A stretch of 64,000 bases of DNA from Candidatus Omnitrophota bacterium (GTDB taxonomy: Bacteria; Omnitrophota; Gorgyraeia; Zapsychrales; JAHFFX01), in assembly GCA_023247705.1 (NCBI GenBank), contig JAHFFY010000004.1:2561-66560 (forward strand), in the 5' to 3' direction. This document shows positions 1-21,502 of the stretch, piece by piece. Made by a program: the position numbers and the translations under genes. The notes under the pieces were generated by a model. That model was not told the DNA's origin and did no database searches. It saw nothing but the letters and a program-made list of their open reading frames with translations. Position 1 is the first letter of the stretch, and every line of letters begins with the position of its first letter.

Positions 1-53
1 GGTTCGGTCAATGGGCGGAAAAAGAGAAAGAACAATTCGGCTTACAGGACATT

Positions 54-3000
54 TTGCAAGGGATCACACGATTGGTGGTCACGCCCCAAGAAAGGAAGGT
101 CCTCGAGAAAGAGACCGGAGAGTTGCTCGGGGGCGATTTCGCCCTGGCCAGAAAGAATAAAGCGGTCGTCAAGTTAAGCAAAGTGGTCGGGTTGTCGGTC
201 TCGGTGGGTGTCGGTGGCGTTTGGTTATATCTGGCGAATGAGCGATCTCATTTAGCGCAACAGATCCCTTCCTCTGTGCAAAAGCCGATCACCTCATCCG
301 AAACTCCGCAGGAGAATTCCGCTCCACAAACCGAAGCGGCAAAAGAGACCGCTCTAGAAGAAAGTCAAAAATTAACCGGGTTGATGTCTTTGGTGGAAGG
401 ATCGAAGGTCAGCGATGAAGTCAATCGCGCAAATAAAGAGAGAGCGATTCAGAATGTCCAAGCGGAGATTGAGCGTTTGAAGAAATCGGCTCAAGAGGTC
501 GAACAAAAGACCACAACCGTCACCGCCGATGTCCAGCAGTCCCGTCAGCGAATAGAATCTGATTTTAATTCCAAAATAGAAGAATTAAGAGATTTAGCGG
601 GAAAACACGAGGGAGTAAGCCCGCATCATGTCGTCCCAACCGAGGAGAAATGGTATAAATTGAAGGCAACCAAAGAGGTGAAACTGGCATCTCAAGAGAA
701 GAAAGGTCAGGATGAATCAAAAGTGGAATTGAAAGGCGATGGCGGTCTGCGTACGGTTCCGACTGGTCATGGAGGCAGCGATTATTCCGGCCTCGGCACG
801 GAATGGGAGGCGAATTTTGAGAGTGCCTCGCCATTTTTGTCTTTAGGGAGTTTTACCCAGGTGAATTATACCAATGGGTATCTTGTCCCGCGTAAAAGCC
901 AACCGCAGGTGTGGTCCTTAAAGAAACAGGAAGTGACGCGGGAATGGGTAATCCAATCCTCCAAAGGAAAAAGCCAGCTGCAGCTCGCGGTCCCGCCGGG
1001 TTATGTGATTGTCGGTCTTGAAACCAAAGAGCTGGTGGAAGGAACCATTTATTATGACCCGGTCCATCAAACCTGGCATCTGGCCTCGGAACAAAATTCC
1101 AAACAAGTCAAGGTTTACGTCCGTAAAGCTAAACCGAGAGAATTGCCGGTCTATAAACAATCCCTTCTTTTAGTAAATGATCAAGGGCAGGCTTTAAGTG
1201 CGGCAGCGATTCAGACCGCTTTTCAAAAGGATTTCCCGAAGGAGATGCTGGACCTTTTCGATTTGGCCAAAAGTTTATCGCTGGAAGAGAAGCTGGAATT
1301 GCGTCGGATGCTTCTCGATCTCAAAATTTTTTATTATACCACCAATCCCTATTTGACCGATGTTACGAAGGGGATGACCCTGGTGCAAGAGATGTTTTTT
1401 ACCCTGGCGCATCAATGCAATGGTTTTGCTTCCTTTAACAGCATTCTCTCGTTTGCTTTGGGTATTCTCGAGAAAGAGTATGCCATGGATGGGTACTGGG
1501 ATACAAACGGGAGCAGATTTGTGACCAGAGGAAATGGACATAATTGGAACATGTCTCAGGGCAACGTATTGAATCAGCCGCAGATCGGCGAATCGTCTCC
1601 TTTTTATCAAAAGGTCGGCGTCACGGAGGCGGAATGGACCAGGGAAATAACCGAGGTGATTCTCCCCCGGGCCCAAAGACTGCGCGCACTTCTTCCCAAG
1701 ATGCTTGAGATGATCACATTGAGACGCGAGCAGAAAAAGATTGAAACGGCGATCCAGGCCGAAGAGGAAAAACTAAAAAAGGTGAGCGAAGAAAAGCCGG
1801 CCAGACAAGACGGTGAAATCAGCCCGTACTATAAAGACAATCAAGAGTACTATTTTAAGTTAGTCGCCGGTTATCAGGAAAAAATAACCCAGCTTAAGAG
1901 GGATACCTTAACCAAGGAGACGATGGCAACGTTGATTGATTGGGGCTCTGAATTCAGCCGGTCATTGGTGCGGGGAGCGGTGGCGCCCCAGGGCAAGGGA
2001 GGCAAAGGGGTAGAGACACTTCTTCCTTCTGGACAATTAAAAAATATCTTGAAAGGTCAGCCCAAGGATCAGTCGAAGTCCGGCGCTTTGTTTGTTTTTT
2101 ACAATCCCTATGAACTCATGGCCGCGACGGATTATGCCCTCGAGATGCTTTCGGAATTGAATAATAAATTGTGGCGATTTCCTGCCCCAGACTATCCCAT
2201 GATGGAGCGGATCGCGCAAGTTAAAAAAGACATCTTCACGGCGGTGAAGGCGTTTGCCCGTCAGAATAATTGGGAATTGTATGAGCCCTTGGTCATGGAT
2301 CCGATCCGCTTACAGGATGGGACGCTCACGGATTTGGCGGATGGTGGAAATGCCGCCACCCCAAGCTATCTCATTGACCGGCTCAATAAAGATGACAATA
2401 TAACGGATGGAAATGATCTGATGACTTTTGATCTTCGGGACACGTTGGTGGATTTTCAAAAGGATTTGTTTTTATTTAAGTACGAACAAGACGAACAGTA
2501 TAGCGGAGGCGTAAGAACCCGCGCAGCGGAAACGGGATATCATTTAAAGGGAAAAAGATCCGGCCAGTATAAAGACCGACGGATTCCGGCCTTAAATTTG
2601 TCGCTGTATAATTATCCGTTTCCGAATGAAGAATGGCTGGCGGTTGGAACTGATCCGAATGGTAAAACGTTTTTTTTGGGGCCGGTCGCTGAGCGGGAAC
2701 GGCTGAACGATTTGCCGACCGAGGTCCGCAAGGATTTATTTCTTTTACCTAAAAATATTTTTGTGCTCAATGGAGAATTATTGGTCTGGTACAGGGATTC
2801 TCAGGGGCAGTATCGTCTCGGGGGAAGTTATTCCGAACATCATCACTTAGCCGACCGCATTTTTTTTACGACCACCACCCTGAGACAGTTACCCAATGGA
2901 ACGGTCATGTTTTTTGGTTATGAAAATTCCCGCTGGAAGTTGTTTATTTTGGATAAAACTGCGGTCGAAGAAGTTGATTTGGATTCTGTGACGCAGGAAA

Positions 3001-6000
3001 GAGTCGCTAGTGTGCAGGAGTTTGCTGTTTATTCCGATGGGCGCTGGGCCACGGTGCTGACGTATCAATCGGGATTACAAGGATATTTTGGGACAAAAGT
3101 TAAGCAGGCCGGGCTTTTTGATCCGGCCGAACGTTATAAGATCGCACGTATTCCAGTTGAGACCCCACAGAAAGGAATCATCGCTGCAGTGGAAGACCAA
3201 GGTGGATCATACTATATCGAATTTGACAGCGATGTTATTGAGCAAATTTCCGAGATTAAAAACGATCAACATCTTTTGGGGGCAGAGAATCCCATCTTTT
3301 TCCCTAACGGAAGTCCGGCTTTTTTAATCCAGCGGCGCGATAGAAAGTGGGTATGGGTGAGTGATCGGGCCGGTGCATCAACGGTCTTAATGCGATATCC
3401 CCTGAACAGAGTATTGGGAACCGCCTCTGGGGCTTCCTTGGAAATTTCAAATCAGCATAAGACCAAAGACGGTCGCTGGGTTGCTGAGGTGGCTTTATCT
3501 AAACAACCTGGCGTGAGGGATCTAGATATTCCTATCCCGGGTGTAAGGGGAAGCTTCGTGATTTTACCTAACGGCGAATGGTTTATGCGTATGCCTTTTA
3601 AAAAGGTCGAGACGGCGATTCAAATGGGCCCTGCCGGTTCATCGACAACGACCGTTGAGAAGAATTATGTCCGGCTTTGGGGGTCATGGTATGAGAGTCA
3701 ACGATCTCACATTCTGGCCACAGACGAGATTTTTACGAACGTTTTTGATCCCATTTTCGCGGTTGGTCCCGATGGAAAGGCGGATGCGTCCCGTTACCTG
3801 TTACTCTATTCCAACGATGAGAACGGTGTGATTTGGAAGGTCAAAGGCCCGCTGGCGCCTTATGTGGGATTATCTGAACAGGAGAGTTATCAACTTGATG
3901 CAATACCTATTCAGGAGACAGCGGATGGACAGATTGTTTTAAATTTGGTTAAAATGGCTCCAGATGGAAATATATTATATAATTTTTCTCCTGTCGTGAA
4001 TCTTTTTCCCCGGAGCCATCATTTTCTGAATCGGGTTATCGCTTTATATAATATTCCGGTTTCAGCCGTTGATGCCAATGAACACATCCCAGAGGAACGG
4101 ATCGATCTGCGCTGGGAACATTTTTCCCGGCTGGTCCCGGCGATCGATGCGACATTGAATTCCCCTAACACCCTGGGGGCGGGAAATTACACGGAAACGT
4201 GGAGTTATCTGGGCGACCTTTTGATGGATATGGAAAACGATCCCAACGGGCGGTATTTTGATCCACAACGCGTCGCGGAAATCCTTCGTTCCTATAAAAA
4301 GATTGTGGCCCAGCTGCTGTTTCATTATTCGGATTCTTCAGCTCAAGACATCGTCAGCTTTAATGAGTTGAAGAGATATACCGATGTCTTGATTGATCAC
4401 GGACTGCATGAGGTGGTCGTTGAGATCTTGGAAGAACTCTACAAAATTCTTTTGAACAAAGAGGCAGAAAAGCCCGCGTCGATGACTTCGGCCAAAGACA
4501 TTGTTTCCCTCCTGACGCCGCAGCAATGGCGGAATGGTATTGAGGCCTATGAAAAATTTCTTCAGGAACAGTTCAAATTAGATAGACGGACCAAAAGCAT
4601 CTATCTGCATAAATATCATTTTGAACCCAGCGATCACCACCGGGTGGATGAATTAAATGCCTTTGCCTCGATTTTCCTGGATGATGCAGCAGTGAACAAA
4701 TTGAGCGGTTATGGGCAGAGGATTGATTCTCTGACGCAGTGGATTCAGGATCTCAATATTCCTTTCCAATATTCTTCGGTCAAGGCCGCCCCGGGATTGA
4801 AAGATATTTTTATCCTTTTACATCAAGGTTTAAAAGGGGATCGACGGAATTTTGATGTGGAGTTCACCCAAGAAACACGATCGAGCCTTTTGTATAAAAT
4901 GGTCAAACTCATCCGCGGCAATACCGATCGACTGAAAGTCAATCTTGCCCATCCGTTGGCGAGTACCGAAGAATATCTCCAGGAACGCCGGGACTGGGAT
5001 TGGGTCAATCAACGCATGACCCGGATGTTGGGGGATGATTTCAACGGCCCTCACAATATCGGGGATGTGGTCACGACATTGATTGAAGAAGCGCATCACG
5101 ATGCTGCGACGTTGTTTGTCTTGGCGGCTTTTTTAACTTTTGTCTCAAGTTTTTTTTCTGATTTCCTGCGCAGAAGAAATATCACCCTGAGCCAAAACCC
5201 CAAGAAAGTGGTGGAACAATTTATCGCAGAAAATCCCTGGCTGGAAGGCTGGGGCGAAGTCGAGGGGATCAAGGATTTTCTTTTAGAGATCTTGAAGTCG
5301 GGAAAACTGATGACCCCCGAACAAGAAGAAAGATTACGCTCGATCCGCCAGCAGACTTCTTCGAATGAAGATCGCATGATCATCGACGCGATTCTGGCAT
5401 TGCCATTTGAATATCCCGCGAAGTCCTCGATGAGTTTGACCGCGATGGGGTTGATTGTCGATCATCTCAATGGGGATACCACTATTGAGCCGTATCGAGA
5501 CCGTAAAAAAATGACCCAGGCCATTTTGGATTTGGTTGAAAATATTAAGGCCGGAAAAATTCCCATCAAAGATTTTTATCCCGAACTGCGCAAGATCATT
5601 TCCCGGTTTAGCCGTGAAGAGACATCTCTCCAGGAAGATCTGACCCCGGTCGCCTTTCAGGATTTGCAGTCCGGATTACAAAATAAAAAGAAAGACGCGC
5701 GTAAGGTCATGACCGACGGCAAAGAAATCATTTCATCCGAGTATGACGGCTATGTCTCAAAACAGACCGGAGCGGGAGTGGAATTTGCTGGGGTCAGGGA
5801 ATACCGGGCCGGAGACGATTGGCGGCGGATTACTTTCGCCAGCTTGGCCTCCATGGATGGCCCTCTCCAGGTGAAGGAATCCCAAAAGGAGACGAAAGTC
5901 TCGGCAGGGATCCTTCTCGATCTGCGCGCGCTCAATAACGCTGACAACCTGGAGCAGTGGACCGAGCAGCTAGCCAACTCGTTGAAAGTTTTATATAAAA

Positions 6001-6818
6001 AATTCAGGGATGGGCTTTCCAGCGGCGGTGATTTTCAACTGAAAGGGTTGATTGTGATTCTGCCGGATGGAAATTTAAAAGAAATAAAAATCGACCGGAC
6101 GTTTCAATATCTTGAACTGGCCAATGGGATTTTTAAGATTGTCGAAAATAATTTTCCGGTGGCGTTTCAGATGTTTCGGATGCAGATGAAGGCTAAGCAG
6201 CCGGAGTTTTATACTGCGGCGGAAAAAAAGCGCTACGCCCAGAGGACCAAAGGCCTTTGGAAAGGGGAATTGAGCCAGCAAAAATTGGGACAGATGCAAC
6301 AGCGCCTTAAGGCTGATAATATTTATTTTGTTGGGGTCGATGAATCCGAACATCAATCGTTGGTTCAAAGTTTTCCGCGGTCGCGTAGTTTTTATTGGAA
6401 AGGCCAGCGGGCATATTCGATTTTGCCCAAAGACCAGGACAAAACGTTGGAGGTGTTGGAATTGGAGCCCGGGGAGAGCGTGACGGCTGCGGCGGACCGG
6501 GCGCTGTTGAAACAATCTGACATCGAACATCCTGAATCTTCAGGGCAAGACCAGATTGCTGATAAAGCCTTGTTGACTGCTGTTAAACCGCCCCCCGGTG
6601 GTATCGATCTTAACCCGGACAACCTGGATCTGCAGACGCAAGGGGAAGGAATGAATTTGAACTTTCCTTTGGATCCCAAAAACCTCGAAGGGGTCCAGAT
6701 CAACGGTCTTACGCCGGTTATTTTAGAGATCACGCCCGTTTCCAACCTGCCTTTTCTTTTAGGGTTGGGTCTCTTGAAGACTGAGCAATTGAGTCTAACT
6801 TCAGAACGTCATAACTAA
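54..6818 (+). CDS. Giant protein of unknown function, at least 2254 aa, membrane-anchored. The reading frame is open to the 5' edge of the window, so the true start may lie upstream.
   Basis: Uninterrupted 6.7-kb ORF; the first start codon in frame is TTG at 54 and there is no in-frame stop upstream within the window. Hydrophobic segment VVGLSVSVGVGGVWLYLA near residue 45. E/K/Q-rich coiled-coil stretch around residues 90-200. Second hydrophobic segment ATLFVLAAFLTFVSSFF at nt 5104-5160. C-terminal region GAGVEFAGVREYRAGDDWRRI (nt 5766-5830) resembles the DUF58 signature. C-x-x-F-A-S motif AHQCNGFASF at nt 1407-1436. GC content matches the surrounding genes. Confidence 0.75.
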   Translation: MQGITRLVVTPQERKVLEKETGELLGGDFALARKNKAVVKLSKVVGLSVSVGVGGVWLYLANERSHLAQQIPSSVQKPITSSETPQENSAPQTEAAKETALEESQKLTGLMSLVEGSKVSDEVNRANKERAIQNVQAEIERLKKSAQEVEQKTTTVTADVQQSRQRIESDFNSKIEELRDLAGKHEGVSPHHVVPTEEKWYKLKATKEVKLASQEKKGQDESKVELKGDGGLRTVPTGHGGSDYSGLGTEWEANFESASPFLSLGSFTQVNYTNGYLVPRKSQPQVWSLKKQEVTREWVIQSSKGKSQLQLAVPPGYVIVGLETKELVEGTIYYDPVHQTWHLASEQNSKQVKVYVRKAKPRELPVYKQSLLLVNDQGQALSAAAIQTAFQKDFPKEMLDLFDLAKSLSLEEKLELRRMLLDLKIFYYTTNPYLTDVTKGMTLVQEMFFTLAHQCNGFASFNSILSFALGILEKEYAMDGYWDTNGSRFVTRGNGHNWNMSQGNVLNQPQIGESSPFYQKVGVTEAEWTREITEVILPRAQRLRALLPKMLEMITLRREQKKIETAIQAEEEKLKKVSEEKPARQDGEISPYYKDNQEYYFKLVAGYQEKITQLKRDTLTKETMATLIDWGSEFSRSLVRGAVAPQGKGGKGVETLLPSGQLKNILKGQPKDQSKSGALFVFYNPYELMAATDYALEMLSELNNKLWRFPAPDYPMMERIAQVKKDIFTAVKAFARQNNWELYEPLVMDPIRLQDGTLTDLADGGNAATPSYLIDRLNKDDNITDGNDLMTFDLRDTLVDFQKDLFLFKYEQDEQYSGGVRTRAAETGYHLKGKRSGQYKDRRIPALNLSLYNYPFPNEEWLAVGTDPNGKTFFLGPVAERERLNDLPTEVRKDLFLLPKNIFVLNGELLVWYRDSQGQYRLGGSYSEHHHLADRIFFTTTTLRQLPNGTVMFFGYENSRWKLFILDKTAVEEVDLDSVTQERVASVQEFAVYSDGRWATVLTYQSGLQGYFGTKVKQAGLFDPAERYKIARIPVETPQKGIIAAVEDQGGSYYIEFDSDVIEQISEIKNDQHLLGAENPIFFPNGSPAFLIQRRDRKWVWVSDRAGASTVLMRYPLNRVLGTASGASLEISNQHKTKDGRWVAEVALSKQPGVRDLDIPIPGVRGSFVILPNGEWFMRMPFKKVETAIQMGPAGSSTTTVEKNYVRLWGSWYESQRSHILATDEIFTNVFDPIFAVGPDGKADASRYLLLYSNDENGVIWKVKGPLAPYVGLSEQESYQLDAIPIQETADGQIVLNLVKMAPDGNILYNFSPVVNLFPRSHHFLNRVIALYNIPVSAVDANEHIPEERIDLRWEHFSRLVPAIDATLNSPNTLGAGNYTETWSYLGDLLMDMENDPNGRYFDPQRVAEILRSYKKIVAQLLFHYSDSSAQDIVSFNELKRYTDVLIDHGLHEVVVEILEELYKILLNKEAEKPASMTSAKDIVSLLTPQQWRNGIEAYEKFLQEQFKLDRRTKSIYLHKYHFEPSDHHRVDELNAFASIFLDDAAVNKLSGYGQRIDSLTQWIQDLNIPFQYSSVKAAPGLKDIFILLHQGLKGDRRNFDVEFTQETRSSLLYKMVKLIRGNTDRLKVNLAHPLASTEEYLQERRDWDWVNQRMTRMLGDDFNGPHNIGDVVTTLIEEAHHDAATLFVLAAFLTFVSSFFSDFLRRRNITLSQNPKKVVEQFIAENPWLEGWGEVEGIKDFLLEILKSGKLMTPEQEERLRSIRQQTSSNEDRMIIDAILALPFEYPAKSSMSLTAMGLIVDHLNGDTTIEPYRDRKKMTQAILDLVENIKAGKIPIKDFYPELRKIISRFSREETSLQEDLTPVAFQDLQSGLQNKKKDARKVMTDGKEIISSEYDGYVSKQTGAGVEFAGVREYRAGDDWRRITFASLASMDGPLQVKESQKETKVSAGILLDLRALNNADNLEQWTEQLANSLKVLYKKFRDGLSSGGDFQLKGLIVILPDGNLKEIKIDRTFQYLELANGIFKIVENNFPVAFQMFRMQMKAKQPEFYTAAEKKRYAQRTKGLWKGELSQQKLGQMQQRLKADNIYFVGVDESEHQSLVQSFPRSRSFYWKGQRAYSILPKDQDKTLEVLELEPGESVTAAADRALLKQSDIEHPESSGQDQIADKALLTAVKPPPGGIDLNPDNLDLQTQGEGMNLNFPLDPKNLEGVQINGLTPVILEITPVSNLPFLLGLGLLKTEQLSLTSERHN

Positions 6819-6851
6819 AAATTTTTCTTACTTTGTGAAGCCAAAATATTC

Positions 6852-6880
6852 TTGCTCATGTTATAGAATGCATATATAAT
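6852..6880 (+). promoter_or_regulatory. Putative sigma70-type promoter for the ATPase gene: TTGCTC, 17-nt spacer, TATAAT.
   Basis: TTGCTC at 6852-6857 and TATAAT at 6875-6880 with a 17-nt spacer, about 38 nt upstream of the ATG at 6918. An AGAGGTG ribosome-binding site precedes the start. Confidence 0.4.
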
Positions 6881-6917
6881 AACGCTCTCATTACTCCGGA
6901 AAAAATAGAGGTGTATC

Positions 6918-8096
6918 ATGAGCAAAGAATATTCTCCCTTTACGCCAGGGGTGCCTGTTCCCATAGATTTTTTTGTTGGAAGGAATCAAGAGTTAACAAC
7001 ACTGGTTGATAAAGCAAAAGCATCTTCGTCGGGTAAATTACAGTTGGCTTTTGTTTATGGCGAACGAGGCATTGGAAAAAGTTCTTTATGTCGTATGACA
7101 CGTGTTATTGCGGAAAGTCAAGCGGATATCTTGGGGGTACATGTTTTTCTGGGAGGGGTCGTATCTCTCCCAGAAATGGCGAGACGGATTTTTGAAAAAT
7201 TTCTTAATGAAAGTATTAATAGACCATGGTATGAACAGATTAGATCGTTTTTAGGAAAACATGTCAGGGAAGTGGGGTTATTTGGAGTTAATATTGAATT
7301 CGATGCTGACAAAAAGGAACTGAATCAGTTGGTTAATGGTTTCTCAACAGCGTTGAGGACGTTAGTTCAGCAACTAAAGGATAAAAAAGGGCTATTGATT
7401 ATTCTCGATGATTCAAATGGGCTGGCTAATTTGAAAGATTTTGCGAATTGGCTTAAAAGTCTGATTGATGAGATTTCGACATCCGATCAGCCGCTCCCTT
7501 TGTTCCTGGTCTTAGCTGGATTACCAGAAAGAAGATTGCAGCTTTTTCAATCTCAACCTTCTCTGATGAGGGTGTTTGATCCAATTGAGATTAAAAAATT
7601 ATCAGAAGAAGAGACAAAAAATTTCTACAGGCAATCATTTTCTAAGGTAGGAATCAGCATTAAAGAAGAGGAATTAGCGACCCTATGGCAATACTCAGGA
7701 GGCTATCCAGTTTTAGCCCATGAGATTGGAGACGCTGTTTTTAAGATAGACATGGATAATAATATTGATAAAGATGATGCTGTTAGAGGTATTGTTAAGG
7801 CGGCTCATGTTATTGGACAGAAGTATATAGAACCTCAAGTGTATGACGCGATCAGAAGTCAGAAATACCATTCCATTTTAAGAAAATTGGCGAGAGATCC
7901 TTTTGAAAGTCAATTTCGAAAAAAAGAAATAGCCAAAGATCTTAATGAAAGCGAAAAAAAAGTTTTTGATAATTTTCTTCAACGTATGAAGAAATTAGGG
8001 ATCTTAAAAGAAGATAAGGAAGCAGGATCAGGAGCTTATCAATTTACAAGCGATTTGCATTATTTGTTTATTTGGCTTCAAGCTCAGGGGAATTGA
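6918..8096 (+). CDS. AAA+ / STAND-type NTPase (Arch_ATPase / AAA_16-like) with a C-terminal winged-helix-like region.
   Basis: Walker A YGERGIGKSS. Walker B hhhhDD as LLIILDD. GGYP motif typical of the Arch_ATPase family. Roughly 36-38% GC, clearly lower than its neighbours. Confidence 0.7.
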   Translation: MSKEYSPFTPGVPVPIDFFVGRNQELTTLVDKAKASSSGKLQLAFVYGERGIGKSSLCRMTRVIAESQADILGVHVFLGGVVSLPEMARRIFEKFLNESINRPWYEQIRSFLGKHVREVGLFGVNIEFDADKKELNQLVNGFSTALRTLVQQLKDKKGLLIILDDSNGLANLKDFANWLKSLIDEISTSDQPLPLFLVLAGLPERRLQLFQSQPSLMRVFDPIEIKKLSEEETKNFYRQSFSKVGISIKEEELATLWQYSGGYPVLAHEIGDAVFKIDMDNNIDKDDAVRGIVKAAHVIGQKYIEPQVYDAIRSQKYHSILRKLARDPFESQFRKKEIAKDLNESEKKVFDNFLQRMKKLGILKEDKEAGSGAYQFTSDLHYLFIWLQAQGN

Positions 8097-8118
8097 GCTT
8101 TGTGAAGAGGAGGAATAT

Positions 8119-8439
<321 letters not shown>

Positions 8440-8459
8440 TTTTTTATTCCTTTTCCGGT

Positions 8460-8969
8460 ATGAAAAAGAAAATTTTGATGATCATCGCCAGTCAGAAATT
8501 CAGGGACGAAGAATATCTGGTTCCCAAATCTTTTTTTGAAAAAAAAGGTTTTAAGGTCATTACGGCGAGTTCTTCTTTAAGCTCTTCCACGGGAATGCTC
8601 GGGGCAACAGCCCAAGCGGACATCCTGATTAAAAAAGTGAAAGCCGAAGATTACGATGCGGTTGTATTTGTCGGAGGATCTGGGGCGCAGGAGTATTGGT
8701 CGGATCCTTTAGCGCATGAGATTGCAAAAAAAGCGAATCAATCCGCCCAGGTGCTGGCCGCGATTTGTATTGCCCCGGTCACGTTAGCCAACGCGGGATT
8801 ATTACAGGGAAAAAAAGCGACCGTCTGGTCTTCTGAAATCAAGCAGCTTCAGGATCAAGGCGCTCAATTAAGTCAGGCCGCGGTCGTCCGCGATGGAAAA
8901 ATCATCACGGCCAACGGCCCGCAGGCGGCTTTGGATTTTGCTGAAACGATTATGGAGGCGATTGTCTGA
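8460..8969 (+). CDS. DJ-1/PfpI family protein (class I glutamine amidotransferase-like).
   Basis: About 169 aa; AAICIAP nucleophile-elbow cysteine motif; the FVGGSGA region. Confidence 0.75.
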   Translation: MKKKILMIIASQKFRDEEYLVPKSFFEKKGFKVITASSSLSSSTGMLGATAQADILIKKVKAEDYDAVVFVGGSGAQEYWSDPLAHEIAKKANQSAQVLAAICIAPVTLANAGLLQGKKATVWSSEIKQLQDQGAQLSQAAVVRDGKIITANGPQAALDFAETIMEAIV

Positions 8970-9319
8970 TGTTGATCCATTTTTGTAAATCCAAGATTGC
9001 CCATGGACGGGTGACGGAGGCTCAGTTGTATTATGAGGGGAGCATCACAATCGATGAGCGTATTCTGAAGTCGGCCGAGATCATTCCCGGAGAAAAGGTC
9101 GAGGTCTTGAACGTTAACACCGGGTCCCGTATTGAAACGTATGTGATCGCCGGGAAAGCGGGTTCGGGGCAAATTTGCCTCAATGGCCCGGCGGCGCGCT
9201 CAGGCTGTGTGGGCGATCAATTGATCATCCTCTGTTACGCCCTGATTGATCCTTCCGAAGCCAAGAAAGTGAAAACCAAAGTGATTTATCTTGATGATCA
9301 TAACAAAATTAAAAATTAG
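8969..9319 (+). CDS. panD: Aspartate 1-decarboxylase.
   Basis: KSKIAHGRVTEAQLYYEGSITID, including the Gly-Ser self-processing site. Length 116 aa. One-nucleotide TGATG overlap with the upstream gene. Confidence 0.9.
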   Translation: MLIHFCKSKIAHGRVTEAQLYYEGSITIDERILKSAEIIPGEKVEVLNVNTGSRIETYVIAGKAGSGQICLNGPAARSGCVGDQLIILCYALIDPSEAKKVKTKVIYLDDHNKIKN

Positions 9320-9869
9320 ATTGTACGGAGATCCGGTGCTCCGCCAGAAATCTTTACCAGTCAAAACCGTAGGTCCCGCCGAACGCATGTTGATTCCTTC
9401 GATGATTGAGACCATGTATCAGCATAAAGGCATCGGCTTGGCCGCGCCGCAGATCGGGATCAGCGAACAAATCCTGGTCGCGGATATCGGGGAGGGTCCC
9501 GTTGTTTTGATTAACCCTCAGATCATCAAGAAAAGCGGTTCCGACAAGATGGAAGAAGGGTGCTTAAGCATCCCCGGCATTGTCGTCAAGATCACTCGTC
9601 CTAATAAAATCGTCGTGCGATACATCAATGAGTATAACGAACCCGTTCAAAGGGAATTCGGCGAACTTTTTGCCCGCGTCATCCAGCACGAGATGGACCA
9701 TCTCAAAGGCAAACTCATCATCGATTACGCTTCTTTGTCGCAACAGATCAAAATTAAAAAACATCTCAAGGCGATTGAAGAAGGCCGCCTGCAGGATCTG
9801 CCTCAAACGGCCCCGATTCGCTCGAGAATCAAGGAAGAGCTGAATAAAGAAAAGGGAGTTTCTGCATGA
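9291..9869 (+). CDS. def: Peptide deformylase.
   Basis: Motifs GIGLAAPQIG, EGCLSIPG and QHEMDHL. Confidence 0.9.
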   Translation: MMIITKLKIRLYGDPVLRQKSLPVKTVGPAERMLIPSMIETMYQHKGIGLAAPQIGISEQILVADIGEGPVVLINPQIIKKSGSDKMEEGCLSIPGIVVKITRPNKIVVRYINEYNEPVQREFGELFARVIQHEMDHLKGKLIIDYASLSQQIKIKKHLKAIEEGRLQDLPQTAPIRSRIKEELNKEKGVSA

Positions 9870-10780
9870 CGCACACGACACTCGATCCGACTCCATCCGG
9901 GTCGTTGCGTTTACCTTCGTGGTTCAGACAGCCGATTCCCGACATGGAAAAGATATCCGCGATGAAGGATTCGTTCCGGTCAAAGGGGTTGCATACCGTT
10001 TGTGAAAGTTCTCATTGCCCGAACATGGGGCAATGTTGGGGGCGCGGTGTCGCGACGTTCATGATTTTGGGCGATGTGTGTACGCGGGCTTGTCGTTTTT
10101 GCGCGATTGCCGCCGGAAATCCGCTCAAAGTCGATCTGGATGAGCCCGAACATCTCGCCCAAACGATTCAGCGGATGAAATTAAGATATGTTGTGATCAC
10201 CTCCGTCGCGCGGGACGATCTCGGGGATGAAGGCGCCGGACATTTTGCCAAAACTATTATCGCGGTCAGGAAAGAAAACCCGGCGATCAAGATCGAAGTG
10301 CTGATCCCGGATTTTTCTGCCGAAGAAGGCCGTTTAAAAAAGGTCACGGATGTCGCCCCCGAGGTGATGAGTCACAACATTGAGACGGTGCGAAGGCTTT
10401 CCGATCAAGTCCGTCCGCAGGCCGAATATGAACGTTCTCTGTTGGTTTTAAAAACTATTAAACGGTTGAACCCGTCGATTTTTGTCAAATCCAGTTTTAT
10501 GGTTGGCTTGGGAGAATCCCGTGAAGAAATTTTATCCACGATGACGGATTTGCTGGAGGCTGGCTGTCAGATTTTAACGATCGGGCAATATTTGGCGCCG
10601 AGCCAAATGAAGCGGCATCTGAAAGTGGAACGGTTTGTTTCACCGGAAGAATTTGAAAATTATCGTCAATTAGGAAGGAAGATGGGATTTCGGCATGTGA
10701 TGAGCGGGCCGCTGGTGCGCAGTTCTTACATCGCGGAAGAAGGGTATCAAGAGTGTGTGAAGGATTTGGTATCAACTTAA
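9866..10780 (+). CDS. lipA: Lipoyl synthase.
   Basis: CESSHCPNMGQCW auxiliary cluster motif and CTRACRFCA radical-SAM motif. ATGA overlap with def. Confidence 0.9.
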   Translation: MTHTTLDPTPSGSLRLPSWFRQPIPDMEKISAMKDSFRSKGLHTVCESSHCPNMGQCWGRGVATFMILGDVCTRACRFCAIAAGNPLKVDLDEPEHLAQTIQRMKLRYVVITSVARDDLGDEGAGHFAKTIIAVRKENPAIKIEVLIPDFSAEEGRLKKVTDVAPEVMSHNIETVRRLSDQVRPQAEYERSLLVLKTIKRLNPSIFVKSSFMVGLGESREEILSTMTDLLEAGCQILTIGQYLAPSQMKRHLKVERFVSPEEFENYRQLGRKMGFRHVMSGPLVRSSYIAEEGYQECVKDLVST

Positions 10781-10813
10781 ACCTTAATTAGAAGTTCGCC
10801 AGTTGCCAGTTAA

Positions 10814-10897
10814 CGAGTTTTACGAGTTGGTTTTCCCTGTTGCTCAACTTGAGAACAGTCCCAAATAACTCGTAGAACTTGCCAACTCGAAAACTCG
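10814..10897. repeat. Long imperfect inverted repeat in the lipA to flippase-like gene intergenic region.
   Basis: CGAGTTTTACGAGTTGG at 10814-10830 pairs with CCAACTCGAAAACTCG at 10882-10897, a 16/17 match. Nested shorter complementary segments are also present. Confidence 0.5.
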
Positions 10898-10912
10898 CTA
10901 GCTATTTAAATT

Positions 10913-11899
10913 ATGAAAATAAATGACCGTTTAAAAGAAATTTTATCCCTTGCGCTACGTTTTGGTTTAAGCGGGCTTCTGTTGGCGTATCTCTTCAGCA
11001 AAATTGATACTCACTCCATGATGGCGACGTTGAAGACGGCTGATTTTAAGTACATCTATCTTGCCGCCGGGATGTTTCTGCTGATTCATGTGGTTCTGTT
11101 GCTGCGATGGCTTTTATTTATCCGGGCGCTGTCTTTGGAAATTCCGGTCAAAACGCTGGTCGAGTATTTTTTTATCGGTTTGTTTTTTAATCTTTTTCTG
11201 CCGAGCTCAACCGGAGGAGATTTGGTTAAAGTTTTGGGACTTTGCCGATACACGGACCAAAAAGCGAAAGTGGTCGCCTCGGTTGTTTTGGACCGGGTGT
11301 GCGGATTTGTCGCGATTGTTATCGTTGCCTTTTGTTCCTATGGATTCGGTTATGGTTTATTGCATGATCATACGATCTTGATCGGAATTTTCGTCCTGGC
11401 CTTGATGTGTGTGATTTTATTGACGATTTTTTTTAATGAAAAATTTTTTTCGTTTGGATCACATTTGTTTGCGCGGTTTCCGAAAATCAAAGACAGCTTG
11501 ATGAGCCTGCATTATAATATCTCTTTGGTCAAAGGGCGTATTCCGTTTGTCTTTCTGGCGTTTTTATTGTCCTGTCTTTCGCAGTCTTTGCTGATCATTG
11601 ATTTCTTTTTTGTCAGCATGGCGTTGCACCAGAGCATTTCGTTGATTTATTTTTTCATCTTTGTCCCGATCATCTGCGTTGTTTCTTCGTTGCCTTCCAT
11701 CGGGGGGTTGGGTGTCAGAGACGCGGGAGCTGCCCATTTGTTTGCTAAAATCGGTGTGGCCGAAGGGGTCTCGGTCAGTTTGACACTGGTCAATTTTATT
11801 TTTATGGTTATCATCGGCCTTATCGGCGGAATTGTTTATGTCGCTCACTTATCTCCTCGACGGGTACAACATCATCAAGCTTGTTCCACTTCTGGCTGA
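10913..11899 (+). CDS. Flippase-like integral membrane protein (UPF0104 / LPG-synthase transmembrane-domain family).
   Basis: Multi-pass membrane protein. The N-terminus LKEILSLALRFGLSGLLLAYLFSKID is typical of the flippase-like domain. Confidence 0.6.
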   Translation: MKINDRLKEILSLALRFGLSGLLLAYLFSKIDTHSMMATLKTADFKYIYLAAGMFLLIHVVLLLRWLLFIRALSLEIPVKTLVEYFFIGLFFNLFLPSSTGGDLVKVLGLCRYTDQKAKVVASVVLDRVCGFVAIVIVAFCSYGFGYGLLHDHTILIGIFVLALMCVILLTIFFNEKFFSFGSHLFARFPKIKDSLMSLHYNISLVKGRIPFVFLAFLLSCLSQSLLIIDFFFVSMALHQSISLIYFFIFVPIICVVSSLPSIGGLGVRDAGAAHLFAKIGVAEGVSVSLTLVNFIFMVIIGLIGGIVYVAHLSPRRVQHHQACSTSG

Positions 11900-12356
11900 G
11901 AAGCCGTGGGACGAATCTAGGGCGTTTTTTATCCGCTGGATAGAGGCCGCTTTGCCGCAAGGGAGCCGGAACAATCAGGTGATTGTGGTCTTTGACGGTC
12001 AGCCGGGGAGCTGGGGGGATTGTTCGACATCGGTTGTCCAAGTTGTGTTTTCACTGGATGAAAGCGCCGATGATCGGATCAAAGCAATGGTCAACCGCTC
12101 GAAGTCGAAAAAAACGATCGTGGTCGTGACCAATGATCGTGATATTATTTATGCGGTCCGTGCCGCCGGGGCCTCCAGCATGAGCGTGGAAGATTTCATG
12201 CGCAAAGGCCGACAACACCCCTTGGGCGCAAAAACGTTGCCTAAAAAAATGGCGCAGCAGAAACAGGATCAATCAAAGTACATCTCAAAATCATTGGAAT
12301 TTAAAATCACCTCAGAGTTCGAACGCATTTGGTTAAAATCCAAGGACTCGAAGTAA
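11832..12356 (+). CDS. NYN-domain protein (YacP/Rae1-like predicted RNase).
   Basis: YLLDGYNII N-terminal motif and VVTNDRDI motif. The start may instead be the ATG at 11838. Confidence 0.6.
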   Translation: MFMSLTYLLDGYNIIKLVPLLAEKPWDESRAFFIRWIEAALPQGSRNNQVIVVFDGQPGSWGDCSTSVVQVVFSLDESADDRIKAMVNRSKSKKTIVVVTNDRDIIYAVRAAGASSMSVEDFMRKGRQHPLGAKTLPKKMAQQKQDQSKYISKSLEFKITSEFERIWLKSKDSK

Positions 12357-12371
12357 ACAGGAAATCTTTTT

Positions 12372-13154
12372 ATGATGAATATTCTCCGCTCAATCGGTCG
12401 TTACGTGATCGGAATTTTTTTGGGGTTGGGAAATGCCATTTTTTTTCTCCTGGAAATTTTAGGAAATATTGTTAAGGGGAAAATCCGTGTGCAGGAGGTT
12501 TTAAAACAGATTTTTGAGCAAGGAGTTCAATCTCTGGTCATCGTGGCACTGACTTCCTTTGCATCGGGAGCGGTGTTGGCGATGCAGGGTCATGTGATGC
12601 TGGAACGGTTCGGCGCCAAAGAATACGTCGCGCATCTGGTGGCGCTTTCATTAGTGCGTGAGTTGTCGCCGGTTTTCACTTCTTTTATTTTTTCCGGCAA
12701 GGCGGGGGCCAAGATTGCGGCGGAATTAGGCTCGATGAGCGTCAATAATCAAATCGTTGCGACACGCACGCTGGGGGTCGACCCGGTGGAGTTTCTGGTT
12801 GTGCCGCGTTTCGTCGCTTGTTTTCTGGTCCTGCCGCTTTTGGTCGTATTTTCGGAACTGCTGGGGATCATGGGAGGATATTGCGTGAGTGTCTTCGAGG
12901 CCGGCATCCCGGGATCGTTTTATGTGACACAGACGTTACGCGTCATTAATTATGTGGATTTTTTCAGCGGTTTGATCAAGACGTTTTTTTTCGCGTTTTT
13001 AATCGGCTGGATTTGCTGTTATCAGGGGTTCTTCACCCAGGGCGGATCGTTGGGGGTTGGAAAATACACGACCAAAGCCGTCGCGTATTCTTATATTTTT
13101 GTAGTTTTATCGAATGTTTTTTTAACCAAGGTCATCCTGGCCTTGTGGCAATAA
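12372..13154 (+). CDS. mlaE: ABC transporter permease MlaE.
   Basis: About 260 aa multi-pass permease with MlaE/Ttg2B-like sequence (GVQSLVIVALTSFASGAVLAMQG). Confidence 0.85.
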   Translation: MMNILRSIGRYVIGIFLGLGNAIFFLLEILGNIVKGKIRVQEVLKQIFEQGVQSLVIVALTSFASGAVLAMQGHVMLERFGAKEYVAHLVALSLVRELSPVFTSFIFSGKAGAKIAAELGSMSVNNQIVATRTLGVDPVEFLVVPRFVACFLVLPLLVVFSELLGIMGGYCVSVFEAGIPGSFYVTQTLRVINYVDFFSGLIKTFFFAFLIGWICCYQGFFTQGGSLGVGKYTTKAVAYSYIFVVLSNVFLTKVILALWQ

Positions 13155-13219
13155 ACAGGCGGGGTTGATCGGATAAAATTGTTTAAAATAGTTAGATAAA
13201 TTTTTGAGGAGGAAATCCC

Positions 13220-13564
13220 ATGAACATTTTTTACAAAAAATTTATGACCATCGTGATCGGGTGCAGTTTTTCTCTTTTGACAGGTTGCGTAAGCCATACT
13301 TCCAATGGCGGACAACTGACCATGTATCGCACGCCCAGCATGGAAGCGGCTTGGATCCGCAACGGAGATCCGATCCTGTTTGATGGAACACTATGGTACC
13401 CCACGGACAATGTCGAAAATATCCAGGATGCGGAAGTTTATCTCATGGGCGAGTATCAGGAGGTTCAATTTTTTATTGAAAAAACAGATGTTAAACCTTA
13501 TGATCGGTTATACACCAAGTTTGGAGAGAATCAATTCCGGTCTTTTGCGCATCGAGAGGAATAA
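13220..13564 (+). CDS. Lipoprotein of unknown function embedded in the mla operon.
   Basis: Signal peptide with lipobox LLTGC; 114 aa; no recognisable domain. Confidence 0.55.
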   Translation: MNIFYKKFMTIVIGCSFSLLTGCVSHTSNGGQLTMYRTPSMEAAWIRNGDPILFDGTLWYPTDNVENIQDAEVYLMGEYQEVQFFIEKTDVKPYDRLYTKFGENQFRSFAHREE

Positions 13565-14280
13565 TGATAGAGATTATTCATCTTTTTAAAAAACTTGAAG
13601 ACCAGATGGTGCTTACTGACGTTAATCTGAAAATCGCCCTAGGAGAGATTTTGGTCGTTCTCGGAGGAAGCGGGGCCGGAAAAAGCGTTCTACTGCAGCA
13701 TCTGATCGGTTTAATGAAGCCCGATCGAGGTTCCATCATGATTGATTCCAAAGATATCACCCGTCTTAAGGAGCGGGAACTTTTGCAGATGAGAAAAAAC
13801 ATCGGCTTTCTCTTTCAGGAAGGCGCTTTATATGACTTCATGAATGTCTTCGAGAACATTGCTTTTCCTCTGCAGGAACATACAACCATGAATGAATCGG
13901 GGATCAGAGCTAAAGTCAAAGAAGCCTTGAAAATTGTCGGGCTGGAAGGGGCCGATGAGAAATTTCCCTCTGAACTCAGCGGCGGGATGAAAAAAAGAGC
14001 GGCTCTGGCCCGGGCCATTATTCTGGATTCGAAAATTCTTTTCTGCGACGAACCGACTTCCGGGTTAGACCCGATTTTAAGCAAGGATATCACCGACCTG
14101 ATTCAGAATATATCAAGACAGTTAAAGTGCACGACCATCATTACCTCGCATGATATGAAAAATGCGTTAAGGATTGCTGATCGCGTGGCGATCGTTTTTA
14201 AGGGGGCGATCCTGGCAACGGGAACACAAAAAGATATCCTCTCATCTCAAAATGCTTACGTCCGGGAGTTTTTGAATTAG
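13564..14280 (+). CDS. mlaF: ABC transporter ATP-binding protein MlaF.
   Basis: Walker A GGSGAGKS, ABC signature LSGGMKKR and Walker B ILFCDEP. Confidence 0.85.
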   Translation: MIEIIHLFKKLEDQMVLTDVNLKIALGEILVVLGGSGAGKSVLLQHLIGLMKPDRGSIMIDSKDITRLKERELLQMRKNIGFLFQEGALYDFMNVFENIAFPLQEHTTMNESGIRAKVKEALKIVGLEGADEKFPSELSGGMKKRAALARAIILDSKILFCDEPTSGLDPILSKDITDLIQNISRQLKCTTIITSHDMKNALRIADRVAIVFKGAILATGTQKDILSSQNAYVREFLN

Positions 14281-14446
14281 CGTGAATTGATTGAATTTTT
14301 TTGGGTCAATGAAGAAATGGAGACATTTTACGCTTTAACTTTGAAAAGAAACATGATATATTCTGCTTCGCCAAAGCGATCGGAATTTTCAGTATTGCTC
14401 CGAAGCAATAGCGGTGCGCAACCAAGCGGTAGGCGAGAGAGGTTTT

Positions 14447-15040
14447 ATGGATAAAAAAGATTTCTACAAGAAACTATCAGCGGGAATATTTTTTTTCCTT
14501 TTTATTATGTTGACGGTGATGATGATCTTGGTGATCGGGATTGAGAAGGGATTCACCCAGCCCAAATTTTATGTTGCGGTTCTTTTTAATCGCGTGGATG
14601 GTCTGGCGATCGGCGCGCCGATCCGGTTTTCCGGGGTCAGCGTGGGCACGGTGGGCAAGATCGATTTCCTGGAGGAAAAGATCAATGGCCGTGGCGTCAA
14701 AGTGACATTAAATATTTTCAAGCGTTATAAGAAACAGCTGGAAAAGAGTACGCGCATTTCGATAAGAACTGAGGGGCTGTTAGGTGGGAAGCTGGTGGAT
14801 ATTTCCAGCAGCGAAGTGGGACCTTATGTGGATTTGGACTGGCCGATCATCGGAGAGGATCCGATCGATGTGCAGGATCTGGTCGTTGTGTTTAAAGAGG
14901 CTGCAAATAGTTTTACCCAAACAACGAAGACCATGGATTCGATCAACCGGGAAGTCCGCACGATTTCCGAATCGTCTCAGCGTTTGATTAAACGGGTGGA
15001 ACAAAAATTAATTGAAGGAAACCTATTTAAAGTTTTCTAA
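14447..15040 (+). CDS. mlaD: MCE-domain substrate-binding protein MlaD.
   Basis: N-terminal transmembrane helix followed by an MCE domain (FNRVDGLAIGAPIRFSGVSVGTVGKIDF). The ATG at 14447 has a GAGAGAGG ribosome-binding site; the ORF track starts at a GTG at 14414. Confidence 0.8.
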   Translation: MDKKDFYKKLSAGIFFFLFIMLTVMMILVIGIEKGFTQPKFYVAVLFNRVDGLAIGAPIRFSGVSVGTVGKIDFLEEKINGRGVKVTLNIFKRYKKQLEKSTRISIRTEGLLGGKLVDISSSEVGPYVDLDWPIIGEDPIDVQDLVVVFKEAANSFTQTTKTMDSINREVRTISESSQRLIKRVEQKLIEGNLFKVF

Positions 15041-15043
15041 GCC

Positions 15044-15415
15044 ATGTTTATATTAGGAAATTTTTTGATCGCATTATCTAATGTGATCAGTCTTATTTTA
15101 AATCTCTTATTCTGGATGATTTTCATCAGGGCCTTATTAAGTTGGGTGAATCCTGATCCGTATAATCCGATTGTTCATTTTTTATACCGGACCACCGAAC
15201 CGTTATTGGAGCCGATCCGCAGACATTTACCGGTGATGGGACTTGATTTTTCTCCGATGATTGTTATATTAGTGATTGTCTTTTTACAATCCTTTTTAGT
15301 GGTTAGCTTGAGAGACAAGGGGATGCGGTTAAGGTATTCTTCCTCTGTTGAATCCATGCCGATGTTCGACCGCCGGAGTTCCGACGGTTCAGATACGTTG
15401 TTTTACCGGAGATAA
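15044..15415 (+). CDS. yggT: YggT family membrane protein.
   Basis: IRALLSWVNPDPYNPIVHFLYRTTEPLLEPIRRHLP is typical of YggT/Ycf19. Confidence 0.8.
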   Translation: MFILGNFLIALSNVISLILNLLFWMIFIRALLSWVNPDPYNPIVHFLYRTTEPLLEPIRRHLPVMGLDFSPMIVILVIVFLQSFLVVSLRDKGMRLRYSSSVESMPMFDRRSSDGSDTLFYRR

Positions 15416-15444
15416 TTTTTATTTTTTAAGAAGGAGATTTTGCA

Positions 15445-15738
15445 ATGTTGGATAAAATGAAACAGCTCATGGAAATGAAAAAACAAGCTGACCAGCTCAA
15501 ACGGCAATTGGATGCCGAGAGCGTAGAAGTCAATGAAACCCGCGGGATCAAGATTGTCATTAACGGATCACAATATTTTCAATCGGTCGAAATCGATCCG
15601 ACGTTATTGCAGCCTGAGAACAAAGCGCGATTCGAAAGCGATTTATTGCGCAGTTTAAACACGTCGATTAAGAAATCTCAAAATATTGCCGCGCAAAAAA
15701 TGAAATCGATGGTGGGTTTGAATATTCCGGGACTATAA
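15445..15738 (+). CDS. ybaB: Nucleoid-associated protein YbaB/EbfC.
   Basis: 97 aa; MKQLMEMKKQADQLKRQL followed by a GIKIVINGSQ core. Confidence 0.85.
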   Translation: MLDKMKQLMEMKKQADQLKRQLDAESVEVNETRGIKIVINGSQYFQSVEIDPTLLQPENKARFESDLLRSLNTSIKKSQNIAAQKMKSMVGLNIPGL

Positions 15739-15794
15739 GTGATCGGGTTTGCGGGTTAGCGCGTTGCGGGTTCTTAATCCGTCAACCCGATCAC
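15739..15794 (+). terminator. Hairpin immediately after the ybaB stop codon (11-bp stem). It may be a terminator or a regulatory structure.
   Basis: GTGATCGGGTT at 15739-15749 pairs with AACCCGATCAC at 15784-15794. The loop contains the direct repeat TTGCGGGTT twice. Confidence 0.35.
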
Positions 15795-16703: not shown

Positions 16704-16712
16704 ATCGTCATT

Positions 16713-21187: not shown

Positions 21188-21247
21188 TTTTTTTCCAGAT
21201 TTAAACCTCGTCAGTTGTTTTGACGTTAATCAGAAGGGACAGGAACT

Positions 21248-21502
21248 ATGAAAAAGATTGAACTGTTGTTTGCCGTAGCCTTGCTGGGCGGTTGCGCTTA
21301 TAACGCCGATAATCTTTCCGATATGATGCGCGATCCGCATTATACCCATTATCAGGAAGCCTCTGATGAACTCGAGCATGAATTCCTGAATAAAAAAATT
21401 TCTTATGCCGATTACCAGATGAGAAAACAAGAGTTAGACAATACTTATGAAAAAGAAGTCAAAATCCGCGAAGAGAAAATGCATGAAGAAAAGGCCCCAT
21501 GA
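21248..21502 (+). CDS. Small lipoprotein.
   Basis: Signal peptide with lipobox LLGGC; 84 aa. Confidence 0.5.
   Translation: MKKIELLFAVALLGGCAYNADNLSDMMRDPHYTHYQEASDELEHEFLNKKISYADYQMRKQELDNTYEKEVKIREEKMHEEKAP

Follow-up and report, generated by a model that had tools for sequence, protein, structure and literature searches.

The described systems that come closest to the subject of this study, a solitary ATPase gene on a 64,000-nucleotide (nt) stretch of Candidatus Omnitrophota DNA (contig JAHFFY010000004.1 of assembly GCA_023247705.1; hereafter the window, whose positions serve as coordinates), are archaeal Arch_ATPase proteins, archaeal Orc1/Cdc6 proteins, STAND/NLR-like nucleoside triphosphatases (NTPases), the ATPases TnsC and MuB, and solo NTPases of prophage hotspots. 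The Arch_ATPase proteins PAB2304 (PDB 2qen) and SSO1545 (PDB 2fna), both of PF01637, were structural-genomics targets of unknown function and therefore give no mechanism. The STAND comparison set includes Avs/AVAST, NB-ARC, CED-4 and MalT besides nSTAND1, a domain defined by Kaur et al. (2021; PMC8195603). Among viral loci, the gpA-gpQ tin/old locus of P2-like prophages is a hotspot of anti-phage systems (PMC9122126), the Cluster N central variable region is known for prophage-mediated defence (PMC6544188), and ORF7 of the archaeal virus MSTV1 has been called Orc1/Cdc6 and proposed, from transcriptomes, to activate induction (PMC11375127). A literature search combining AAA_16 or PF13191 with defence or anti-phage returned nothing relevant.

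The window gene is very probably a foreign, solitary cassette of the Arch_ATPase/Orc1-Cdc6 fold class with no link to the giant gene that precedes it. Our best explanation taken whole, namely a laterally acquired single-gene ATPase cassette with a favoured defence or exclusion role, we regard as evenly balanced between right and wrong, and the role itself (exclusion of, or defence against, phage or other mobile DNA) is put forward tentatively, from comparative analysis, as a possibility somewhat short of even. The domain families were known already, and public records annotate the gene as “ATP-binding protein”; new here is a previously uncharacterised solo family of ~400 amino acids (aa), effector-less and phylum-hopping, with kin in three kinds of prophage accessory region.

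Compositionally, the gene stands out from the whole window. When GC content was scanned in 1180-nt windows and 100-nt steps, the ATPase open reading frame (ORF) had a value of 0.373 against 0.473 in its ±5 kb flanks, and the block 6819-8118 a value of 0.368 against 0.448 for the window as a whole; no more than 0.3% of the 1180-nt windows across the 64 kb were as low as the ORF, and the lowest of all begins at 6981. The fall spans ~6750 to ~8150 (100-nt resolution), an island that takes in the leader and the ATPase ORF together with ~70 nt at the end of the giant ORF and ~30 nt at the start of trxA. GC at third codon positions (GC3) is 0.305, compared with 0.531±0.041 in the 46 other window genes (z −5.5), and neither GC1 nor GC2 is unusual (z −0.4 each), so that the anomaly of the window copy is purely synonymous. 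A preliminary description of this DNA, made from the letters alone, had read the low-GC block as a sign of lateral acquisition, to be doubted if composition proved uniform; the block is real and composition is not uniform. Across the family, for which we retained 80 homolog loci (all from metagenome-assembled genomes) and clustered their ORFs over ±10 kb together with those of the window (81 loci), 79 of the 80 gene copies are richer in AT than their flanks, with a mean difference of −6.2 points GC, a deficit of 6.6 points at GC2 and of 8 points at position 3, and a correlation between gene GC3 and host GC3 of r = 0.80. In the sole remaining locus (L079, 10001-11170) the difference is reversed (ATPase gene 0.493 GC, flanks 0.355), which suggests that a low-GC host recently received the gene from a donor of higher GC.

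The distribution of the gene among related genomes argues for lateral acquisition more directly. A metagenome scan anchored on lipA yielded many relatives with the trxA-...-mla block that follows the window gene; ten of them include 2.6-8.8 kb upstream of trxA, and none of the ten carries the ATPase there. Sister genomes hold copies elsewhere. Window genes 12372-23598 are collinear with L005/L006 over 11 kb (orthologs 59-82% identical), and L005 has a 70%-identical ATPase between the orthologs of window genes 20456-21187 and 21499-22272; likewise, window genes 35863-45690 are collinear with L003/L012 over 10 kb (DnaK 84%, AccD 74%, others 47-76% identical), and L003 has a 68%-identical copy after the ortholog of window gene 44680-45690. 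DNA homology between the L005 and L003 loci is limited to −104..+1190 from the ATG, i.e., leader plus ORF, stopping at the stop codon, and a leader counterpart of ~105 nt accordingly travels with the gene between different chromosomal sites. On a larger scale, nearest neighbours in the family reach 80% identity between Terriglobia and Binatia, 72% between Acidobacteria and Nitrospinota, and 69% between ANME (anaerobic methanotrophic) archaea and a bacterium. Together with the GC3 value, the empty sites and displaced copies uphold the lateral acquisition that had been proposed.

No machinery for this movement was apparent: neither terminal repeats nor target duplications were found around the ATPase gene. 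An Rfam scan of 6000-9000 returned nothing meaningful. An 11-nt direct repeat, TCCAACCTGCC (6741-6757 / 8170-8186), was considered as an insertion scar and set aside as chance, because 11% of equally spaced real sequence pairs score as well. Integration linked to tRNA genes was likewise discarded, the window having no tRNA gene and the nearest one across 60 homolog loci lying ~1.5 kb off. Separately, L005 has at 9300-9380, 3' of its ATPase homolog and before a SpoU gene, a long GC-rich imperfect palindrome (CCCCCACACCC...GGGTGTGGGGGG), which is not common to other ATPase copies and could be a terminator or a REP-like (repetitive extragenic palindromic) element.

The window gene lies, as first described, directly downstream of the giant gene, with the leader alone between the two coding regions. 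It had also been credited with a promoter of its own, and TTGCTC-17-TATAAT does exist in a promoter-like leader that moves with the gene; its −10 hexamer is perfect, and its −35 hexamer fits the consensus at three of six positions only, for which reason a promoter consensus scan did not pick it up. The window sequence TATATAATAA, which overlaps TATAAT, was aligned by MAFFT to a TATGTTA(A/G)AAT conserved in three homolog loci (L001, L003, L005). Among 79 family upstream regions (−100 to −11), TGnTAnAAT occurs in 11 (0.3 expected), nine of which place it within −47 to −65, and TAnAAT in 22 (2.6 expected). These patterns support, without proving, autonomous transcription. No terminator-like site was found between the ATPase gene and either neighbour.

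The Walker A, Walker B and GGYP motifs listed initially can all be read in the translation (Table 1), and both profile matches that had been put up for checking exceed their cut-offs: AAA_16 (PF13191) at 49.1 bits (cut-off 32.6, E 1.2e-12, residues 19-171) and ATPase_2/Arch_ATPase (PF01637) at 41.9 bits (cut-off 33.2), the latter with near full-length profile coverage. The nSTAND1 profile (PF20703) reached 30.7 bits against a cut-off of 27.1, matched at positions 14-216 of 379 only, and precomputed nSTAND1 matches on close homologs are flagged “weak”; a weak MCM_C winged-helix match was also returned. An AlphaFold2 model (predicted local distance difference test 85.6, predicted template modelling score 0.80) consists of an AAA+ core, a helical lid, the winged helix that had been anticipated at the C-terminus, and a terminal helix, and strands 2 and 3 of its core are separated by an insertion of 80 residues that forms two helices, a β-hairpin and two further helices.

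In an alignment of 34 family sequences, 79 positions are invariant, and the conserved motifs comprise an N-terminal SPFxPGxP...FFxGR (invariant S6, P7, F8, P10, G11, P13, F18, F19, G21 and R22 in the N-linker), the P-loop, LDDxNG (including D164 and D165), GLxERR, QPSLxRxF, GGxPxxxHExGD and several winged-helix residues. R218 of QPSLMRVF is invariant and, judging by its position, a candidate arginine finger. The RuvB profile pairs PvpveFFvGR with PKSLDEFIGQ, PSLaRvF with PLRSRFG, and GGYPVLA with the sensor-2 GTPRIA, the arginine being missing from the last; GGYP sits where RuvB has GTPR (sensor 2) and NB-ARC has GLPL, and in GGYPV a valine takes the place of the RuvB sensor-2 arginine. The marks of classical AAA+ proteins of the clamp-loader, RuvB and initiator type (N-linker, Walker A and B, box-VII arginine before strand 5) are thus all present, and on the RuvB profile alignment the protein joins a classical AAA+ box VII to a STAND/Arch_ATPase-like GxP lid.

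Fold comparison of the model gave its highest figures for PAB2304 (21.3) and SSO1545 (19.4), followed by archaeal Orc1/Cdc6 (17-18), TnsC/MuB (15-16), ZAR1/CED-4/NRC (13-14) and MalT (13). As modelled, the fold is nearest to archaeal Arch_ATPase and Orc1/Cdc6 and not to NLRs. A profile search of PDB sequences produced weak matches only (RuvB, 2fna, Roq1), and a BFVD fold search generic AAA+ matches only. The protein has the NTPase-helical-winged-helix (NOD) core of the STAND class. It has no N-terminal effector and no TPR, WD40 or LRR sensor, its core using all 392 aa, and the model does not favour NB-ARC, NACHT or MalT structures over other AAA+ clades. It is, in other words, a bare NTPase-lid-winged-helix module without the architecture that defines NLR-like STAND proteins. 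From the initial label of a STAND/Arch_ATPase-type NTPase, the P-loop AAA_16/Arch_ATPase assignment is thereby retained, and the NLR-like part is dropped in view of the distance of the fold from NLRs and the missing effector and sensor.

These features set the family apart from each of its described relatives. PAB2304 and SSO1545 are 17-18% identical to the window ATPase, whose family is, unlike them, mainly bacterial and horizontally mobile, with near-invariant N-terminal and QPSLxRVF/GGxPVxxHEIGD motifs of its own. In contrast to archaeal Orc1/Cdc6 (PDB 1w5s, 2qby, 1fnn), the window protein matches no Orc/Cdc6 hidden Markov model in Pfam or NCBIfam, has a GGYP lid instead of a sensor-2 arginine motif, and is encoded by a solo gene that is patchy in bacteria; no origin-like, repeat-rich DNA was seen beside it. 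It resembles STAND/NLR-like NTPases in its marginal nSTAND1 match, GxP-type lid and three-part core, but the nSTAND1 literature concerns multidomain proteins and this is a bare core. Compared with TnsC and MuB, it has an extra winged helix, no family match at the sequence level, and no transposase or other Tn7/Mu genes nearby.

The family itself is broad and uniform in layout. Of 1665 detectable relatives, the best 120 are all about 390-425 aa long, the closest being 67-72% identical to the window ATPase and the remainder of the 120 52-57% (47-72% among family members); named sources among the best relatives are Omnitrophota, Deltaproteobacteria/Thermodesulfobacteriota, Planctomycetota and Acidobacteriota. 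Among 1.84 billion cluster representatives, a profile search returned 346 clusters (50% identity) at E<1e-30 and 1108 at E<1e-10. Since every full-length member among the best 150 clusters is about 395-430 aa long, none has a fused effector or sensor domain. A collection of 185,579 species with one genome each held 463 matching stretches, a lower bound set by the search patterns, and the 80 retained loci cover >15 phyla, including two ANME/Methanosarcinales archaea. The family is under purifying selection: the ratio of non-synonymous to synonymous substitutions (dN/dS) is 0.05-0.07 between close homologs, and that of the window copy is not computable because its synonymous sites are saturated (proportion of synonymous differences, pS, 0.82-0.86).

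Temperate viruses carry distant homologs of full length and with the same motifs, each as a single accessory gene. These homologs are 403-423 aa long, all match phrog_6841, and were compared with the window family by hhalign (probability 97-98%, E 1e-11 to 5e-14) and BLASTP. In P2-like prophages of E. coli, the gene for a 407-aa homolog (hhalign 97.4%, E 1e-11) is placed between gpA, a replication gene, and gpQ, which encodes the portal; this protein, WP_019842449.1 (E. coli TK3888, NZ_AP044770.1, L103 6267-7490), is named “nSTAND1 domain-containing NTPase” by PGAP, weakly matches the PADLOC candidate PDC-S59 (E 2e-7), and is present in four of 5426 complete E. coli genomes. Mycobacteriophage Kevin1 gp30 is an orpham of the central variable region between lysis cassette and integrase (hhalign 98.2%, E 5e-14), and gp34 of Gordonia phage Cashline has a similar position. 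The archaeal MSTV1 ORF7 is 26% identical (BLASTP E 4e-52) and lies near an integrase, a HEPN gene and a MazE gene. With these solo NTPases the window family shares full-length homology, motif set and single-gene accessory character; they differ from it in residing in variable or defence regions of temperate phages, the window subfamily being chromosomal and set amid housekeeping genes. A possible 86-aa ORF across the start codon of the WP_019842449.1 gene, which PGAP leaves without annotation, was also observed.

A functional pairing between the ATPase and the giant gene upstream, hinted at by their adjacency in the preliminary description, does not hold up. The giant protein (2950 aa) has no match in Pfam, NCBIfam or PADLOC, and a search of 5.8 billion proteins found itself only. 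Its former “DUF58-like” label goes back to a single sub-threshold motif, GVREYRAGDDWRRI, in the C-terminal 438 aa, which scored 13.6 bits against DUF58 (PF01882; cut-off 23.4, E 0.038) over profile positions 2-46 only. Among the ORFs of the 80 homolog loci the giant ORF clusters with nothing, so that in the co-occurrence check that had been suggested no locus (0/80) has a relative of it and the ATPase orthologs occur without it, the outcome that had been named beforehand as a refutation. The three closest homologs, moreover, occupy three unrelated neighbourhoods, and the giant gene has a host-like GC3 of 0.52 compared with 0.305 for the ATPase gene, and the two genes' histories therefore differ. 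The ATPase gene is without a functional tie to the giant gene. Nor does it have another constant companion: no cluster of neighbours recurs in more than 9 of 81 loci, the top one reflecting generic ABC-ATPase paralogy, and no conserved flanking DNA, non-coding ends or small ORFs were found in the 80 loci beyond closely related syntenic genomes.

The suggested defence-island context fared no better. Downstream of the ATPase follow trxA, DJ-1/PfpI, panD, def, lipA, an LPG-synthase-type membrane protein, an NYN protein and mlaEFD, which make this a housekeeping operon and not a defence island. Among 234 proteins encoded by the two nearest genes per side of the homologs (22 longer than 800 aa set aside), metabolic and housekeeping functions predominate overwhelmingly; a few defence-type matches were found (two DNA methylases, two or three PtuA/AriA-like ATPases), a count made without a proper background model, and integrase or transposase families are not among the commonest. 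As for an AVAST or NLR-like defence system, PADLOC-DB v2.0 returned no match beyond the P-loop for the ATPase (best PDC-S27, E 2e-4 over 40 P-loop residues; BrxD, E 1e-3) and none to Avs.

A conflict or defence role is nonetheless favoured, because distant full-length homologs sit in temperate-phage accessory hotspots; the weak PDC-S59 match of the P2 homolog and the toxin-antitoxin islet that relative L114 has between giant gene and trxA (see below) point the same way. The cassette extends from ~6750 to 8150, a single ORF preceded by an AT-rich leader of ~100 nt that contains a sigma-70-like promoter, and is probably inserted at a variable spot between the lineage-specific giant ORFan and the trxA-panD-def-lipA-mla operon. 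Its product, with a predicted Arch_ATPase/Orc1-Cdc6 body plan, resembles a STAND NOD core stripped of effector and sensor domains; self-assembly would be driven by ATP binding with the invariant R218 acting in trans, and would probably take place on nucleic acid, contacted by the winged helix and by the 80-residue insertion. With neither an effector domain nor a partner gene present, assembly of the ATPase would itself be the output. It is tempting to speculate further, along lines that we consider unlikely, that the protein is a one-protein immunity or exclusion module, an Orc1/Cdc6-like AAA+/winged-helix ATPase acting as sensor and effector at once (e.g., as an ATP-driven, replication-blocking ring or filament on invading DNA), whose bare promoter-plus-ORF cassette spreads between bacterial and archaeal phyla without a recombinase of its own. 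If the defence or exclusion role were true, the family would represent a minimal NTPase immune protein without an effector domain, relevant to the question of how NOD or ORC-like ATPase cores work when no effector is fused to them and of how single genes pass from genome to genome with no mobility machinery in view; it spans many uncultured phyla as well as archaea and has a tractable relative in the E. coli P2 prophage hotspot.

Several observations weigh against such a role. The window ATPase matches no PADLOC family beyond the P-loop and contains no recognisable effector, and its neighbours and those of its homologs are mostly housekeeping genes with a handful of defence-like matches. Identities of 47-72% across phyla and a near-invariant N-terminus are unusual, given that defence sensors normally diversify. 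The phage-hotspot homologs are only 21-28% identical, which makes for a weak transfer of function, and the authors of the MSTV1 study propose a regulatory (lysis-lysogeny) and not a defensive role for its homolog (PMC11375127). The AT bias of the family lies partly at codon positions 1 and 2 and to that extent reflects amino-acid composition. Finally, the Blastocatellia, Vicinamibacterales and Binatia clades follow taxonomy and keep synteny, i.e., the gene is also stably inherited; beside the cross-phylum transfers, this makes it a mobile accessory cassette that is yet stably heritable.

Some of the same points bear on a quite different explanation, in which the gene is a host housekeeping or stress ATPase, active for example in DNA recombination or repair, that has come down mainly by vertical descent and been lost many times, its AT-richness stemming from constrained amino acids. 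Strong purifying selection, the clades congruent with taxonomy, the ruvB and recO genes that adjoin some homologs (four loci each, see below), the RuvB-like three-domain layout with its box VII, and the GC2 deficit across the family, which points to amino-acid constraint, all speak for it. We still think it unlikely, since the gene was found in so few of 185,579 species (463 stretches, if as a lower bound), is missing from the ten close relatives at the same locus and located at different sites in sister genomes, reaches 69-80% identity between nearest neighbours across phyla and domains, and in the window deviates in a purely synonymous manner; the ruvB and recO adjacency, too, is confined to one phylum. 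Another reading is that the gene is an Orc1/Cdc6-like regulator or replication initiator left by, or borrowed from, an integrated virus or plasmid, an ATP-dependent DNA binder that controls replication or a switch of the lysis-lysogeny type and has no part in defence. To this we assign a low probability: no integrase, repressor, replication or structural phage genes were found within ±10 kb in the 80 loci, nor any conserved upstream winged helix-turn-helix partner or small ORF, Pfam and NCBIfam show no Cdc6_C or Orc family match, the GGYP lid replaces the sensor-2 arginine motif, and a dN/dS of 0.05-0.07 speaks against a decaying remnant.

A purely selfish single-gene element, such as an addiction or homing-like cassette in which the ATPase aids its own spread or retention and the host gains nothing, is very improbable in our view, as terminal repeats, target-site duplications and a transposase were not found, each locus has one copy only, and no nuclease or toxin domain is recognisable. 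Hardly credible, lastly, is the idea first advanced for this DNA, that of an NLR-like or AVAST-type STAND defence NTPase working with a giant DUF58-like protein in a defence island. The NOD core and a marginal nSTAND1 match are what the ATPase has in common with such systems. The giant protein, however, has no relative in 80 homolog loci or 5.8 billion proteins and falls below threshold for DUF58, the closest ATPase homologs sit in unrelated contexts, the GC3 values of the two genes indicate separate histories, effector and sensor domains are absent from the ATPase and 150 representatives, no Avs or other PADLOC match was obtained, and the genes downstream are housekeeping ones.

Table 1. Features of the ATPase cassette and its surroundings (positions in the 64,000-nt window).
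Feature	Position	Strand	Remarks
AT-rich compositional island	6750..8150	.	100-nt GC 0.26-0.46 inside vs. 0.46-0.59 outside
Stand-alone AAA+ NTPase ORF, 392 aa	6918..8096	+	AAA_16 / ATPase_2 / marginal nSTAND1; lid and winged-helix domains
AT-rich leader, 99 nt	6819..6917	+	from giant-gene stop codon to ATPase start codon
Promoter-like TTGCTC-17-TATAAT	6852..6880	+	TTGCTC 6852-6857, 17 nt, TATAAT 6875-6880
TGTTATAGAAT	6859-6869	+	overlaps promoter-like stretch 6852..6880
Shine-Dalgarno-like AGAGGTG	6907..6913	+	4 nt upstream of ATG; read from sequence
N-terminal linker motif SPFTPGVPVPIDFFVGR	6933..6983	+	residues 6-22; aligns with RuvB N-linker
Walker A GERGIGKS	7059..7082	+	residues 48-55, from translation
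Walker B LLIILDD	7392..7412	+	residues 159-165; D164, D165 invariant
QPSLMRVF	7554..7577	+	residues 213-220, right before strand 5; aligns with RuvB box VII PLRSRF
GGYP lid motif	7698..7709	+	residues 261-264
C-terminal winged-helix domain	7833..8045	+	residues ~306-376, then terminal helix to residue 391
Giant ORFan gene, 3' part	3..6818	+	full protein 2950 aa; runs off left window edge
trxA	8119..8439	+	22 nt past ATPase stop codon; own GAGGAGG; no terminator between
Alternative ATPase site	21188..21498	.	L005/L006 synteny; window holds small lipoprotein-like ORF (MKKIELLFAVALLGGCAYN...) instead

In the surroundings of the cassette, the order trxA-panD-def-lipA-LPG synthase-NYN-mlaE-x-mlaF-mlaD (window 8119-15040) is kept in at least 14 metagenomic relatives (L106-L124); the window has a DJ-1/PfpI gene (8460-8969) where most relatives have panD directly after trxA. 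In one relative (L114, 57-8970), the same trxA operon is preceded by another giant ORF, at least 2179 aa long, and only the last ~60 aa of this ORF resemble the window giant protein (31% identity, E 0.056). Between this ORF and trxA lie HicB/HicA, a minimal nucleotidyltransferase (MNT) with a HEPN-like ORF, and a Phd-like gene. On either side of this group stands one copy (6420-6508, 8009-8097; 81% identical) of an 89-nt direct repeat, a duplication of the giant gene's 3' end. The islet looks like a site-specific insertion at the spot where the window has the ATPase, and the presence of a toxin-antitoxin islet between giant gene and trxA therefore marks the spot as a landing site for small conflict-type cargo in the lineage.

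Elsewhere, in four Planctomycetota loci (L054, L065, L068, L069), 39-92 bp separate the ATPase homolog from ruvB, with two orientations occurring, and recO is the other neighbour in three of these four as well as a neighbour in a Nitrospirales locus (L023); either lineage synteny or a link to DNA transactions may lie behind this. Within the window, 21188-21498 (Table 1) is another variable spot. A second low-GC stretch, with 1180-nt windows below 0.40 GC, was seen at ~25760-27960; it includes the gene 26713-27735 (GC 0.396, GC3 0.472) and the ORF 26246-26626, and may be another acquired segment.

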